DNA from: Archangium sp.
Lineage (GTDB): Bacteria; Myxococcota; Myxococcia; Myxococcales; Myxococcaceae
Direction of reading: 5' to 3'
Assembly: GCA_031367385.1 (NCBI GenBank)
Contig: JANLPS010000525.1
Coordinates: 1-12,593 of the forward strand
Length of the DNA: 12,593 bases
Shown here: positions 54-12,136 of the stretch, one piece after another
Numbering within the stretch: the stretch's first letter is position 1
How the letters are laid out: each line of letters starts with the position of its first letter
Made by a program: the position numbers and the translations under genes
Notes under the pieces: generated by a model
What the model was told of the DNA's origin: nothing
What the model saw: the letters and a program-made list of their open reading frames with translations, nothing else
The model's database searches: none

Positions 54-949
54 AACGCTGCCCCGCGAGCGCGCGAACGCACCAGCACCGCGACGAGGTT
101 GAGCAAGAAGGTCAGCATCAGCAGCACCAGCACGGTGGCGTACATCATCGGCTGCGCGGCCTCGACGTCGGGGGCCTGGGTCGCGAGCACATAGGCGTGG
201 TACCCCAGGTGCATGAACTGCGACGAGAGGGAGGTCGGCAGGTTCGGCAGCGCGTAGGCAGCGCCGGTCAGCAGCACCGGGGCGACTTCACCAGCGCCTC
301 GGGAGATCGCCAGAATTGCGCCGGTCATGATGCCCGGCAACGCGCCCGGCAGAATGACGCGAAACAAGGTCTGCGAGCGGGTGGCGCCGAGGGCGAGGCT
401 GGCCATGCGGAGCTCGACTGGCACCGAACGCAGCGCTTCTTCGGTCGTGACGATGACGATGGGCAGGGTGAGCAAGGCCAGCGTGAGGGCGGCCCAGAGC
501 AGGCCCGGCTGAGCGAAGTGCAGGCCCGTGCCGGAGATGCGGTCGACTCCGGTGCCGATCAGCTGCACGAAGAACCCGAGCCCGAAGAGGCCGAAGACAA
601 TCGAAGGCACGCCGGCGAGGTTGGCGATGGCGGCGCGGGCCAAGCGGGCCAGGCGCGAATCGGGTGCCGCGTATTCGTGCAGGTACACGGCGGTCGCGAC
701 GCCGAGCGGCATCACGGCCACGGTCATCAGCAGGGTCAGCACCGCGGTGCCATAGATCGCGGGAAAGACGCCACCCTCGGTGACCTCGTCGCCCGGGCCT
801 TCGGTGAAGAATCTCCACGAGAGCGCGCCCCAGCCCCCGAGCACTGCGTCGACGACGACGACGACGAGCCCGGTGAGAATGAGGAGCATGGCCAGGCCGG
901 TCAGCCCTGCGAAGACCCGGTTGATTCGGCGACCGCGGGCGGGGTTCAT
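50..949 (-). CDS. pstA: Phosphate ABC transporter permease PstA
   Basis: Multi-TM protein with GGVFPAIYGT, NLAGVPSIVFGLFG, EEALRSVP...ASLALGATR (EAA loop) and RGAGEVAP. Start placed at ATG 949 (MNPARGRR); the ORF-track start at 985 lies inside the repeat insert. Confidence 0.95.
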   Translation of the reverse strand: MNPARGRRINRVFAGLTGLAMLLILTGLVVVVVDAVLGGWGALSWRFFTEGPGDEVTEGGVFPAIYGTAVLTLLMTVAVMPLGVATAVYLHEYAAPDSRLARLARAAIANLAGVPSIVFGLFGLGFFVQLIGTGVDRISGTGLHFAQPGLLWAALTLALLTLPIVIVTTEEALRSVPVELRMASLALGATRSQTLFRVILPGALPGIMTGAILAISRGAGEVAPVLLTGAAYALPNLPTSLSSQFMHLGYHAYVLATQAPDVEAAQPMMYATVLVLLMLTFLLNLVAVLVRSRARGAAL

Positions 950-1169
950 CGCGAAGCCTGTACGAAGCCGCTCATCCTGAGGCACTCGAAAAATGAAGCC
1001 CGGGTCACGGGAAGCTGCACGTGAACGCGGAGGTAAACCTTCGCCAGCGATGGGTGCTCTCCGTTCAGGGCTGTGTGCCGCCGAGCGGGCTCGGTGTGCT
1101 CGGTCGCAGCCCGGCCCGCGTCCCTCGAGATGAACGGGTTCGACTCCGAAGGGATGAACGGGTTCATCG
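942..1169. repeat. Palindromic REP/MITE-like insert 1 (218 bp plus a 10-bp flanking duplication)
   Basis: GGGTTCATCG direct repeat at 942-951 and 1160-1169. Imperfect inverted arms at 968-990 and 1139-1161 (16/23 match). Internal hairpin CCGAGC-GG-GCTCGG at 1081-1094. Shares CTCATCCTGAG (971-981) with insert 2. Confidence 0.7.
946..1167 (-). CDS. Putative 73-aa bridging micro-ORF spanning insert 1, no recognisable family
   Basis: ATG overlaps the pstC stop (ATGA 1167-1164) and TGA overlaps the pstA start (ATGA 949-946). Translation is unproven. Confidence 0.4.
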   Translation of the reverse strand: MNPFIPSESNPFISRDAGRAATEHTEPARRHTALNGEHPSLAKVYLRVHVQLPVTRASFFECLRMSGFVQASR

Positions 1170-2111: not shown

Positions 2112-2917
2112 TGCAGCGGCAAGAACCCCGCTCGATCTGCAATGGCCTGACCCTCGGGCGATCGCACGAACTCGAGAAAAGCAGCGGTGTCAGCCGAGGG
2201 GTGCACCGGCACATAAAAGTACAGCTGGCGCGACAAAGGGTATTTACCTGACATCACATTCTCGCTGGTGGGGAGCACCTCTTCGTCTCCGATTCGAACC
2301 GCCAGCACCCGAACGTTGCGCGCGAAGGCAGTGCCTCCAAAGCCCATCGCCCACGGCTCATGCGAGACCGCGTTGACCACCGCGCCGGTGCCCTCGAGGG
2401 GCTGCAGGGTCGAGGCGAAGTCTTCGTCGTGCAGCACCCGCTCTTTGACGAACCCGTAGGTGCCCGAGGTGCTCTCACGGGTGTAGGTGATGATCTGGCG
2501 ATCGGGCCCACCGAACGCCGACCACCGGGCCACATCGCCCAGCAGCACGTCGCGCAGCTGCTCGAGGCTCAGCGCCCGAACCGGGTTCTTCGCGTTCACG
2601 AAAAACGCCACGCTGTCGCGTACCACCGGTACCACGATCGGAGCGTGCCCCAACTTGGCGGCCAACCGGGCCTGCTCTTCTTCGCCCAACGGGTGCGAGC
2701 TGGTGGCGATGTCGGTTGCTCCGCTCTCGAGGGCCGCGAGGCCCGTACCCGAGCCGCCGCCGGTGATCTGTACGGTGATGTCGGGGTGTTTTCGGCTGAA
2801 CGCGCGAGCCCAGCGTTGTGAGAGGCCGACCAGCGTATCTGAGCCCTTGATGGTGATCGTACCCGCAGCGGCCGGGGCTGCCAGCACCGCCAACAGCACG
2901 GCCGCGAGTCGTGTCAC
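2108..2917 (-). CDS. pstS: Phosphate ABC transporter substrate-binding protein PstS
   Basis: Cleavable signal peptide ([18 protein letters not shown]). Motifs ITIKGSDT, GGGSGTG, RESTSGTY and YPLSRQLYFY. GTG start overlaps the upstream regulator stop. Confidence 0.93.
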   Translation of the reverse strand: MTRLAAVLLAVLAAPAAAGTITIKGSDTLVGLSQRWARAFSRKHPDITVQITGGGSGTGLAALESGATDIATSSHPLGEEEQARLAAKLGHAPIVVPVVRDSVAFFVNAKNPVRALSLEQLRDVLLGDVARWSAFGGPDRQIITYTRESTSGTYGFVKERVLHDEDFASTLQPLEGTGAVVNAVSHEPWAMGFGGTAFARNVRVLAVRIGDEEVLPTSENVMSGKYPLSRQLYFYVPVHPSADTAAFLEFVRSPEGQAIADRAGFLPLQ

Positions 2918-3612
2918 GCGGGAGCGACCGGCTGGTTCTCGTCAGACAGCCGGTACCCGACGCCGCGAACGGTCTCGACCAGGTTTCGCGCGACGCCCAG
3001 CTTTTCACGCAGACGCATCACATGCGTGTCGACGGTGCGGGTCTCTTGCTGGCTGGTGATGCCCCACACCTCGGCCAGCAGCTGCTCGCGCGACTGCACC
3101 CGGCCCGGGCGCGACATCAGGTGCTGCAGCAATCGAAACTCGAGGGCGGTGAGCTCGACGGGTTCACCGGCGACGGTGGCACGGTGGGTGCCCACGTCGA
3201 TGGTCAGCTCGCCCAGCTGCAAGATCACAGCGGGCTCTGACTGGTGCGCCCGGCGCAAGATGGCCTTGACCCGCAAGACGAGCTCACGGGGGCTGAATGG
3301 CTTGGTGACGTAGTCGTCAGCGCCCACTTCGAACCCATCGACCCGGTCGGCCTCTTCACCGCGCGCGGTCAACATCACGATGGGCACGAGCTTCATTCGA
3401 GGGTCGGTGCGAAACCGGCGGCACACTTCTTTGCCAGAGATGTCAGGCAGCATTAGGTCGAGCAGCACCAGGTCGGGCACGCGCTGCGCAACGGTGGCCA
3501 GCGCCGCTTCGCCGGTCAACGCCACCTCGGTTTCGAGGCCCGCTTGCTGAAGGTTGAACTCCACCAGGCTGGCGAGGTCGGCTTCGTCATCGACGATGAG
3601 AATGTGGGCCAT
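2914..3612 (-). CDS. phoB: OmpR/PhoB-family response regulator, first gene of the pst operon
   Basis: Receiver domain ([28 protein letters not shown]) plus winged helix ([33 protein letters not shown]). Coupled to pstS. Confidence 0.88.
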
Positions 3613-6203: not shown

Positions 6204-6881
6204 TCACGACACGAGCTTGTAACCGACGCCGCGAATGGTCTCGATGATGTCACCCGCCGGCCCCAGCTTCTCGCGCAGCCGTTTGATGTGAGTGTCGACC
6301 GTGCGGGTGGTGATCTCGGCCTCGATGCCCCACACGTCTGAGAGCAAGGTCTCGCGGGTCTGCACCCTGCCCGGCCGCTCGAGAAAGGTCTTGAGCAGCC
6401 GAAATTCGAGCGCAGTCAGCACGACCAGCTCGCCTTTGACGCGCACCTCGTGGCGTTCGGCGTCGAGCGCGATGGCTTTGATGCTCAGCGCCTTGCCGAC
6501 CGGAGCCACCTCTTCTCCATGCCGCCGCAGCACCGCTTTGACCCGCAAGAGCAGCTCTTTGACCGAGAACGGTTTGACCACGTAGTCATCGGCGCCCAGC
6601 TCGAGGCCCTTGACGCGGTCGCTCTCTTCGCCGCGCGCGGTCACCATGATCAGCGGCGTGCGTCGGGGCTCGGTCTCGCGAATCAGCCGCGCGACCTCGG
6701 TGCCCGCGATGTCGGGGAGCATCAGGTCGAGCAGCAGCAGCTCGGGCTTGAAGATCTTGTGGCGGGCGATGCCAGCGGCTCCGGTTCGGGCGACCTCGAC
6801 CTCGTGACCGTCGCTCTTCAAGTTGTATTCGAGGAGCGAGGCGAGATCTTGCTCGTCTTCGATGACCAAAATTCGCGCCAT
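6204..6881 (-). CDS. phoB: OmpR/PhoB-family response regulator, likely cognate of PhoR
   Basis: [39 protein letters not shown] and ETIRGVGY. Directly upstream of phoR. Confidence 0.88.
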   Translation of the reverse strand: MARILVIEDEQDLASLLEYNLKSDGHEVEVARTGAAGIARHKIFKPELLLLDLMLPDIAGTEVARLIRETEPRRTPLIMVTARGEESDRVKGLELGADDYVVKPFSVKELLLRVKAVLRRHGEEVAPVGKALSIKAIALDAERHEVRVKGELVVLTALEFRLLKTFLERPGRVQTRETLLSDVWGIEAEITTRTVDTHIKRLREKLGPAGDIIETIRGVGYKLVS

Positions 6882-9085: not shown

Positions 9086-9125
9086 TTCTCGAGCTTTCGA
9101 CTTTTCGCTCGACACGTTTGACGCG

Positions 9126-9161
9126 ACCGGGTGGGCCTCTTGGTGGGGCCCGCACGGTTTT
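9126..9161 (+). terminator. Probable intrinsic terminator or attenuator after rpmF
   Basis: GC-rich stem ACCG-G-GTGGGCC / GGCCCGC-A-CGGT followed by a short T run. Confidence 0.55.
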
Positions 9162-9285
9162 CGTGTATCTGGCTTCGTTCGCTCGAAGCGGGTGAATGCG
9201 CTCGCGACTCTGTGCAGCTGGTTTCGCGCCTGCGAAAAGTCATACGCGGTGACACAGATGCGCCTTTGTGTGTACACGCTCCCCT

Positions 9286-10273: not shown

Positions 10274-11200
10274 ATGAGCACGGCCTTCGTTTTTCCAGGT
10301 CAGGGCAGTCAGTCGGTCGGCATGGGCCAGGCGTTGGCGGCCGCGTTTCCCGAGGCGAAGGCGGTGTTCGAGGCGGCCGACGATGCGCTCGGCGAAAAGC
10401 TCTCGACCCTGTGCTTCGAGGGGCCTGAAGACAAGCTCAAGCTGACCGCGAATACCCAACCGGCGATCTTGACGGTGTCGGTGGCGGCGCACGCGGTGTT
10501 CTCGAAGCGCTTCGGGGCCCTGCCCGCGTTCGTGGCCGGGCATTCGTTGGGTGAGTATTCGGCGCTGGTCGCCAGTGGCGCGCTGTCGTTGGCCGACGCG
10601 GTTCGGTCGGTTCGCGCTCGCGGTACGTTCATGCAAGAGGCCGTGCCGCCTGGAGTCGGGGCGATGGCCGCGGTGCTGGGCCTGCCGCCAGAGAAGATCG
10701 TCGAGATCTGCGCCGAGGCGTCGCAGGGTGAGGTCGTCTCGGCGGCCAACTTCAACGAGCCGAACCAGACGGTGATCGCTGGGCATGTCGCGGCGGTCGA
10801 GCGGGCCTCGGTGGCGCTGAAGGCGGCTGGGGCGAAGCGGGTGTTGCCACTGCCTGTGAGCGCTCCGTTTCATTGCGCGCTGATGCAGCCGGTGGTGCCT
10901 CGGTTGGCCGAGGTGCTGGGTACGGTCAGGTTCAACGCGCCCAATGCGCCGGTGGTCAGCAATGTCGAGGCGGCTGCGAACCAAGATGCCTCGAAGATCG
11001 TCGCGCTGTTGCTGCGGCAAGTGGTCGGGTCGGTGCGGTGGGTCGAGACGGTTCAGGCGCTCGAGAAGGCCGGAGTGACGAAGATCATCGAGCTTGGGCC
11101 CGGCAAGGTGCTCAGCGGGCTGGTGAAGCGAATCAGCCCGAACGTGCCCTGCGTGAATGTCGAAGACCCGGCGTCGCTCGAGAAGGCGCTCGCCTCATGA
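10274..11200 (+). CDS. fabD: Malonyl-CoA:ACP transacylase
   Basis: [32 protein letters not shown] and [14 protein letters not shown] at 10274, 4 bp after the fabH stop. Confidence 0.97.
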
Positions 11201-11390
11201 GCGCTCGTGTGGAGTTCGGAGATCGTCGATCGCACACGCTCATCGTGAGCACCCCAGGACCTCTCATGGTGAGCCTGTCGAACCACGAACCACGTAGCCG
11301 GCTGCTCAGTGCGGTCGTTGGACGAGCTCAGGATGAGGGCTCTCCTCTCGCGCTCAACGCGACGCACCACGAAACCCGAGCAGCCCATGA
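11196..11390. repeat. Palindromic REP/MITE-like insert 2 (about 190 bp)
   Basis: CATGA at both ends (11196-11200 and 11386-11390). Inverted arms at 11261-11282 and 11318-11339 (16/22 match). Extra partial arm at 11237-11250. Tandem GAACCAC at 11280-11293. CTCAGGATGAG at 11327-11337 is the reverse complement of 971-981. Confidence 0.75.
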
Positions 11391-11394
11391 CTGA
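11197..11394 (+). CDS. Putative 65-aa bridging micro-ORF spanning insert 2, no recognisable family
   Basis: ATG overlaps the fabD stop (ATGA 11197-11200), reads MSARVEFG...[10 protein letters not shown]...AAHD, and stops 8 nt into fabG (ATGACTGA). Translation is unproven. Confidence 0.35.
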
Positions 11395-12136
11395 CTTCGC
11401 CAACAAAGTCGCCCTCGTGACCGGAGGCTCCCGTGGCATCGGCCGCGCGATCGCGCTCGAGCTGGGCCGCCGTGGCGCGACGGTCATCATCAGCTATGCC
11501 GGCAATGAAGCCGCCGCCACCGAGACCCTCAAGCTGCTCACCGAGGCCGGAGTCGCCAAGAGCAAAGCCATTCGCTTCGACGTCGCCGACACTGCCGCCT
11601 GCGCGCAGGCCATCGAGGGCGTCGTCACCGAGTTCGGCCGCATCGACGTGCTGATCAACAACGCCGGCGTCGCCATCGACGGCCTGATCATGCGCTTCAA
11701 AGACGACGACTGGGACCGAACCCTCGACACCAACCTGCGTGGCGCCTTCGCCCTCATTCGCGCCGCATCGCGCCCGATGATGAAGCAGCGCGGCGGGGCC
11801 ATCGTCAACGTTTCGTCAATCGTCGGAGAAACCGGCAACGGTGGTCAGGCCGCCTACGCCGCCTCGAAAGCCGGGCTGATCGGCCTCACCAAAGCCGTCG
11901 CCAAAGAGCTCGCCTCGCGCAGCATTCGGGTCAACGCCGTCACGCCGGGGTTCATCGCCACCGACATGACCGCCGAGATACCCGACGGCATGAAGGCGAA
12001 GCTGCTCGAGTCGATACCACTTGGCCGGCTGGGTCTGGCCGAAGAAATCGCCAAATCAGTCGCTTTTCTGGCCTCCGACGCCGCCTCGTACATCACCGGC
12101 GAAACCCTCAAGGTCAACGGCGGCATGTACATGTAG
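11387..12136 (+). CDS. fabG: 3-oxoacyl-ACP reductase
   Basis: SDR motifs [17 protein letters not shown] and PGFIATDMT. Start at ATG 11387; upstream in-frame starts fall inside the insert. Confidence 0.97.

Follow-up and report, generated by a model that had tools for sequence, protein, structure and literature searches.

A repeat-bearing stretch between duplicated ATGA motifs at the fabD–fabG junction of an Archangium genome and its 65-codon frame, a likely ribosome relay

Results

Organization of the fabD–fabG junction

The window analysed here (the whole stretch of DNA, 12,593 nt, from a source genome, G000, with a G+C content of 65%) contains fatty-acid and phosphate-transport genes, in which a 190-nt stretch, hereinafter insert 2, lies between fabD and fabG, and another, insert 1, between pstC and pstA. 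The window forms the start of contig C154, and a near-cut-off match to TIGR02266, a model linked to Myxococcus, points to a probable myxobacterial source. The names of these four genes pass the NCBIfam cut-offs. The features at the two junctions are as follows:

10274..11200 (+): fabD, ACP S-malonyltransferase (TIGR00128, above cut-off), its stop TGA lying in CATGA
11180..11186 (+): GAGAAGG, a Shine-Dalgarno-like sequence in the 3′ end of fabD, before the micro-ORF start
11196..11200 (+): left CATGA, where the fabD stop overlaps the micro-ORF start by −4; the same-genus genome G001 has one ATGA overlap at this point
11197..11394 (+): bridging ORF of 65 codons, a likely ribosome relay, with no protein family or homologue and a non-coding hexamer score
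11201..11237 (+): single-copy left flank; in the local fold the left ATGAGCG is predicted to pair with CGCTCAT at 11237–11243
11238..11250 (+): partial repeat copy (5′ half), by comparison with the repeat consensus
11260..11287 (+): full type-A hairpin repeat, profile score 51 bits
11280..11293 (+): two tandem GAACCAC 7-mers, a tail common in the repeat family
11313..11340 (−): degenerate inverted repeat copy making a REP-like dimer, profile score 15.6 bits (threshold 14)
11341..11385 (+): single-copy right flank by genome comparison, with a weak Shine-Dalgarno signal
11386..11394 (+): right CATGA and ATGACTGA, where the micro-ORF stop overlaps the fabG start by −8
11387..12136 (+): fabG, 3-oxoacyl-ACP reductase (TIGR01830, above cut-off)
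946..1167 (−): insert 1, a 73-codon bridging ORF between pstC and pstA with −4 overlaps at both ends and a 10-nt duplication, CGATGAACCC
968..995: type-B repeat in insert 1, from the profile search

A first-pass annotation had described insert 2 as set between two CATGA copies 190 nt apart and bridged by a 65-codon ORF that runs from the fabD ATGA into fabG with an 8-nt overlap. This layout was recovered in full: the left CATGA (11196–11200) contains the fabD stop (11198–11200), the right one (11386–11390) contains the fabG ATG at 11387, and 11197–11394 encodes 65 residues and a stop. The one-base difference in phase from insert 1 was likewise confirmed, with 218 nt between the two ATGA motifs of insert 1 and 190 nt in insert 2. 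Two of its descriptions held in part. The inserts are related in that they have a short repeat family in common, but they do not align along their length; the inverted arms exist (11261–11282 and 11318–11339, 16 of 22 positions complementary by hand count), but the predicted fold does not pair them. The recurring part of insert 2 is only a 28-nt oriented hairpin (core 28–34 nt), and the genome matches of its flanks elsewhere are not beyond chance. In insert 2, two copies and a fragment of this REP-like hairpin are embedded in single-copy DNA; the insert is not a single mobile unit with an ORF of its own, and its arms are copies of a genome-wide repeat.

A scan of 11100–11450 gave no promoter-like or terminator-like site, and Rfam gave no match in the window. 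The fold of the whole insert is modest (z −1.75; 8/200 shuffles), and that around the fabG start is weak. The Shine-Dalgarno duplex energy is −4.1 kcal/mol at 11180..11186 against −2.2 kcal/mol before fabG, values computed with a general anti-Shine-Dalgarno motif, a search of the genome for the 3′ end of the 16S rRNA having returned no real match. GAGAAGG thus appears to be the old initiation signal of fabG.

Across the spacer, the 11197–11394 frame is the sole open one among the three forward frames. It remains open in 31% of spacer shuffles and in 63% when the repeats are held fixed, and the CATGA count of 25 is at chance level (21.9 expected). About half of the ORF derives from the repeat and its hexamer score (−16.7) is non-coding; its 65-residue peptide has no Pfam family and no homologue candidate among proteins of 35–114 residues. 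Taken alone, the ORF is compatible with chance. Moreover, ATGACTGA also begins fabG in a second genome, G006, so that the −8 stop may be older than the insert.

Elsewhere in the window (9086–9285), rpmF is followed by a spacer of about 200 nt with a hairpin and then by fabH, without plsX, which usually sits between rpmF and fabH; G001 aligns throughout. Upstream of the pst genes, a sensor kinase and a metallophosphoesterase are bracketed by two paralogous response-regulator genes (2914–3612 and 6204–6881; 75–78% alike in stretches); we presume this set from its context to be PhoB/PhoR-like.

The junction in relatives

At both fabD–fabG and pstC–pstA, G001 has direct ATGA overlaps, i.e., empty sites, as the first-pass annotation had expected of fabD–fabG in relatives. 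Among 29 fabD–fabG loci (the best of 37 matches outside the source genome), the spacing is −4 in 10, −1 in 2, 1–12 nt in 12, 18–52 nt in 4, and 357 nt in 1; the spacer is therefore at most 12 nt in 24 of the 29, rather than the ordinary long spacer lacking an overlap allele that the annotation had named as the contrary outcome. Metagenome junctions, of which 46 of 80 loci were scorable, have −4 in 12/46 and at most +7 in 33/46, and insert 2 is absent from all 46. Exact matches to the fabD end were absent from the metagenome contigs scanned, and a plasmid search yielded nothing but distant fabD/fabG. Judged from these sequence comparisons, insert 2 is the derived state.

Other material also occurs at this junction. 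In the relative G012 it holds an antisense gene with a Kunitz/BPTI domain (PF00014; L004:1150–1368, − strand), and four metagenome contigs (L465, L471, L491, L495) have fabD and fabG separated by a gene of about 1.2 kb that looks like fabF by eye and, in three of the four, closely overlaps both neighbours.

We also compared 18 junctions with relatives, a set chosen partly by outcome and hence not a test: G001 provided data for 16, eight of which are at −4 there, and seven of these eight are bridged in the source genome. The junction on contig C56 is −4 in G001, yet lacks a single bridging ORF here. In the reverse comparison, 11 of 44 G006 junctions have adjacent orthologues in the source genome, five of them at −4 (four bridged or fused, one closed). 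For two bridged spacers, C92 and C249b, the bridging frame, read by hand, is already open in G001, and some repeats therefore entered existing linker ORFs. The ancestral comparison was made without C58 and C479 (unmatched in five genomes), C280 and C357 (pair not adjacent), and C8, C91, C115, C187, C287, C356, C410, C425, and C498. Separately, the spacer at C249:8599–8717, with its counterparts L055, L058, and L061, is conserved in sequence across four genomes and holds an open micro-ORF, being 21 nt longer, in frame, in the source genome by way of a repeat fragment; it is possibly an older conserved linker ORF or an RNA element.

A high-copy hairpin repeat and small GIY-YIG nucleases

A profile of the hairpin matched 279 sites in the source genome and 1 in a reversed control; a variant with a longer loop added 17 (0 in the control), for a total of 296. 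A degenerate pattern matched 194 times in the source genome and 0–5 times in each of 40 relatives, showing that, among the relatives compared, the repeat has expanded in the source genome only. Its stem covaries (TGG/CCA in 103, TCC/GGA in 42, TGC/GCA in 8, and CCC/GGG in 7 of 192). The exact type-A core also occurs, among the matches listed, in Devosia, Aminobacter, Dehalococcoidia, and others. The 279 profile matches fall in junctions (219), called genes (37), and other places (23), with convergent pairs favoured (70/181 repeat-bearing junctions vs 934/5779). As in insert 2, copies often pair up as inverted dimers, accompanied by 5′ partial copies and tails of 7-mers. The consensus starts with CTCTCAT or CGTTCGT and is without a terminal CGTC or GTAG; the repeat could be among the further families in the supplements of PMC11893778 and PMC3733652.

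The type-A consensus holds GTGA on its forward and ATGA on its reverse strand, such that a stop of its own overlaps a start; at C56:10724–10900 this stop/start overlap allows a three-step relay. Multi-step relays as a class are without enrichment (1/31, 4/51, 15/256). The source genome also has a second repeat family, e.g., C443:21378–21445, with AAAGGGGACAGGCT terminal inverted repeats and 76 arm matches, whose GGGGACAG agrees with the TIR motif given in the available text of PMC3733652.

Two genes for GIY-YIG proteins of about 100 residues adjoin repeats: that at C388:19214–19522 (L051) has inverted type-A repeats on both sides, and that at C321:30767–31030 (L052) has a type-B repeat after it, on one side. 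They belong to a repeat-flanked clade of seven members (support 100/99, with the bootstrap not fully settled), all of which have adjacent hairpins, four by pattern and three as variant hairpins seen by eye, against none of 21 single-copy relatives outside the clade. G001 has only the single-copy, UPF0213-like kind. The best solved relatives of the GIY-YIG protein are the UPF0213 proteins 1zg2 and 1ywl, which we take to be a CDD family other than cd10448. Of 123 loci from other phyla, two have the nuclease next to the repeat. The C388 and C321 genes are thus candidates for new hairpin nucleases of the Ssn-like type, and their association with the repeats suggests that a small GIY-YIG nuclease may spread them.

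Phase of bridging frames across genomes

We scored co-directional repeat-bearing junctions of 30–400 nt, dropping those with the stop inside the repeat; gene calls came from our own script, the endpoint was chosen after seeing the source genome, and the null randomised the phase while keeping the real spacers. Twenty-six such junctions have an upstream stop in ATGA or GTGA: eight have an exact −4 bridge, two a −8 bridge, eight are fused in frame, and eight are closed. Exact bridges are thus in excess (8/26 vs 2.0 expected, p about 0.0003), also when the window's own two junctions are removed (7/24 vs 1.7 expected). Repeat-free spacers, serving as control, match the expectation (11/256 vs 9.1, p=0.29) and so calibrate the null for the exact class; it is calibrated for that class only, because the near and fused classes exceed expectation in the control too. 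Repeat junctions with other stops have an exact bridge in 2/44. Run-on frames occur at 0/26 of the ATGA/GTGA-stop junctions against 9/44 of those with other stops. The two −8 bridges are fabD–fabG and C58, where both of the open frames of that phase end; a stop at −8 is available in 68 of 2345 genes starting with ATGA or GTGA.

Twelve bridging peptides have no common sequence or frame and have non-coding scores, and the inserts, 67–286 nt in length, have no common termini, length, or orientation. Duplications at the inserts are 4–12 nt and centred on ATGA/GTGA. Weaker downstream Shine-Dalgarno signals at bridged junctions were also considered and rejected: the mean is −5.0 at bridged against −2.3 at closed junctions, opposite to the prediction of strict dependence, although fabG itself has a weak signal.

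The second genome, G006, carries an unrelated repeat, a CCCTCTCCC...GGGAGAGGG hairpin with at least 311 copies (L155–L256); the positions used cover roughly the first third of the full set and, beyond that, a single variant as far as 7.0 Mb. Exact bridges are again in excess there (6/22 vs 2.1 expected, p about 0.007; 5/21 without one case seen earlier); bridged or fused junctions make up 16/22 against 3/22 at other stops, and 5/22 are closed. The G006 hairpin sits in the orthologues of two junctions that bear the source-genome repeat (L056, L133), and both have exact bridging ORFs. With a third family, the terminal-inverted-repeat element, one of five junctions with ATGA/GTGA stops is bridged exactly and has a 12-nt duplication. 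In G010, 2 of 10 junctions have such a stop, one fused and one closed; among 19 junctions from other phyla, scored with crude gene calls, two have it and both are closed, and there is no bridging. Statistically, chance does not account for this phase excess, seen in two genomes whose repeats are unrelated. The first-pass suggestion of a general behaviour stands at this level, for the source genome and for G006 with its different repeat, but not for the single locus, which is not significant alone.

Discussion

A ribosome relay retained for coupling?

Termination-reinitiation coupling requires overlaps or very short distances, with −8 as a known enriched spacing, according to the available text of PMC10666635 and PMC12548453, the latter also citing one study of coupling across longer gaps. 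Against this background, we consider it probable that the 65-codon frame, within a 190-nt repeat-bearing stretch between duplicated ATGA motifs, is a ribosome relay retained for restored coupling. Repeats, presumably spread by the GIY-YIG nuclease whose genes they flank, would have inserted at an ATGA overlap, where an insertion would have to duplicate the ATGA or rebuild a stop or a start. A duplication of the ATGA is likely, because the fabD stop and the fabG start both had to survive. Ribosomes ending fabD may then restart at the left ATG by means of the old signal in the fabD end, flatten the hairpins as they relay across them, stop at ATGACTGA, and restart on fabG. Since the left ATG would capture terminating ribosomes, the allele would be harmless only if its frame delivers them to fabG, and alleles that break coupling would be purged. 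Our best reading is that selection lets through only coupling-preserving insertions, whereby junk DNA turns into a relay ORF. The peptide itself is probably without function and irrelevant: with twelve peptides unrelated and non-coding, and this one lacking a homologue, translation rather than the product is likely what is selected.

The locus can be read in other ways, among them a neutral one, in which the cell tolerates a REP-like patch, the left ATG remains from the duplication, the open frame is accidental, and fabG initiates independently. The rates at which the frame survives shuffling, the closed frames tolerated at 8/26 junctions, the weak fold at the fabG start, and the 357-nt fabD–fabG junction with an antisense gene in one relative all agree with it. 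We nevertheless judge it rather unlikely, as it leaves unexplained the phase excess in two genomes under a calibrated control, the absent run-on frames, and the weak signal before fabG (−2.2). Selection could instead have kept the ORF to hold ribosomes on 190 nt of otherwise bare and structured mRNA, preventing Rho polarity or decay, and not for reinitiation on fabG. Polarity on untranslated RNA is established, as the available text of PMC12548453 indicates, and good downstream Shine-Dalgarno signals are frequent at bridged junctions. However, any nearby stop should then do, whereas open out-of-frame stops lie only at −4 (eight) or −8 (two); this argument is blunted in that the stop positions partly follow from the duplicated TGA, and we regard selection against polarity as improbable.

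A MIRU-like mobile unit with an ORF of its own, targeting ATGA overlaps possibly because the reverse-strand ATGA mimics the TCAT end of the repeat, would account for the 4–12-nt duplications centred on ATGA/GTGA and for a tag-like context after the left ATGA in 5/12 cases against 83/445 ordinary overlaps. Yet the inserts lack common termini, length, orientation, or peptide and their flanks are single-copy, as many as 70/181 repeat-bearing junctions are convergent, and the same outcome is seen with repeats lacking TCAT, which together make such a unit very unlikely. Acquisition of a genuine small-protein gene at this junction, as the 65 codons and start signal might suggest, is scarcely credible in view of the ORF's hexamer score, its half-repeat composition, and the missing Pfam family and homologue candidate. 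An assembly artefact at the repeat is equally remote: none of the contigs listed spans the whole of insert 2, their pieces ending at 11238–11289, but contigs of 4/4 runs from two studies (one of the runs being perhaps the source of the window itself) cross the left junction into it, and insert 1 is spanned in X1, X2, and X3. In a second strain, insert 1 differs by a frame-keeping gain of 9 nt and six substitutions, with no new stop, as a single event.

Returning to the relay reading, we hold a wider form of it with evenly divided confidence, namely that overlaps act as a genome-wide sieve making relay ORFs from unrelated REP-like families, and that the repeats are spread by a UPF0213-related sister clade of Ssn with its own hairpin motif. 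Static genomes make it difficult to tell whether selection for coupling maintains the very common ATGA overlap or whether the overlap arises as a by-product; when repeats insert into overlaps, they perturb them naturally, and the resulting phases can be counted in any repeat-rich genome. If the sieve reading is true, these insertions would allow selection on coupling to be read out naturally and by counting, separately for each gene pair. The reading would also account for certain orphan small ORFs that matter through being translated rather than through their product, show a route from non-coding to translated DNA, and single out candidates for a new nuclease family specific for hairpins.

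Comparison with known systems

The closest precedent in architecture is the mycobacterial interspersed repetitive unit (MIRU; Supply et al. 1997, as described in the available text of PMC12548453 and PMC3184786), a unit of 40–100 bp in 40–50 copies, each carrying an ORF. As in MIRUs, insert 2 occupies a start/stop overlap, is bounded by a short direct repeat, and has an empty counterpart in a relative, and its internal ORF overlaps both neighbours (−4 left, −8 right), an arrangement proposed to keep coupling. Unlike a MIRU, the 190-nt insert is unique and the recurring part is a 28-nt hairpin alone, copies of which face either way and mostly lie elsewhere; each bridging ORF is made anew with another sequence and frame, and three unrelated repeat families give the same outcome. 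Insert 2 is therefore not a MIRU, because no unit carries the ORF.

The Ssn proteins are single-domain GIY-YIG nucleases of about 100 residues (CDD cd10448) flanked by inverted, oriented hairpin repeats (SRM/NTS) in hundreds of copies, and they cleave single-stranded DNA site-specifically at the repeat (PMC11893778, available text). The small GIY-YIG gene found here is likewise flanked by inverted, oriented, high-copy hairpin repeats. Unlike in that system, however, 0/296 repeats overlap matches to the published SRM motif (79 matches in the source genome vs 45 in a reversed control), and the nearest solved relatives of the protein are UPF0213. The accessible portion of PMC11893778 describes no link to operon junctions or translation.

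REP/BIME elements are short extragenic hairpins that form dimers in opposite orientation, lie behind stops and between convergent genes, and in some cases sit in frame within genes (PMC3733652, available text). The present repeat resembles them as a 20–40-bp hairpin of high copy number, mostly extragenic, with inverted dimers and stem covariation. It differs from the CGTC- and GTAG-tagged REPs in that its consensus has neither end tag. RAYT-associated REPs are linked to a tyrosine transposase, and the gene seen beside the present repeat encodes a GIY-YIG nuclease; bridging ORFs at overlaps are not mentioned for REP/BIME in the accessible text of PMC3733652. Unlike in MITEs, the repeats are internal, there is no constant body, the flanks are single-copy, and the insert lengths vary between 67 and 286 nt.

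Like the short ORFs over integron attC/attI sites (PMC8876359, available text), the bridging ORF would be non-functional, with ribosomes crossing a hairpin by termination-reinitiation, and like the leader ORFs of bicistronic designs (PMC12548453, available text), it would deliver ribosomes to the next gene by the same means. Unlike either, it is found without integron parts, in chromosomal core operons, and recurs after repeat insertion. In the accessible literature, which included few subscription papers, we found no REP-derived bridging ORFs beyond the MIRU and integron precedents. What appears to be new here is the quantitative evidence that unrelated repeats converge on a bridging-ORF architecture by filtering.
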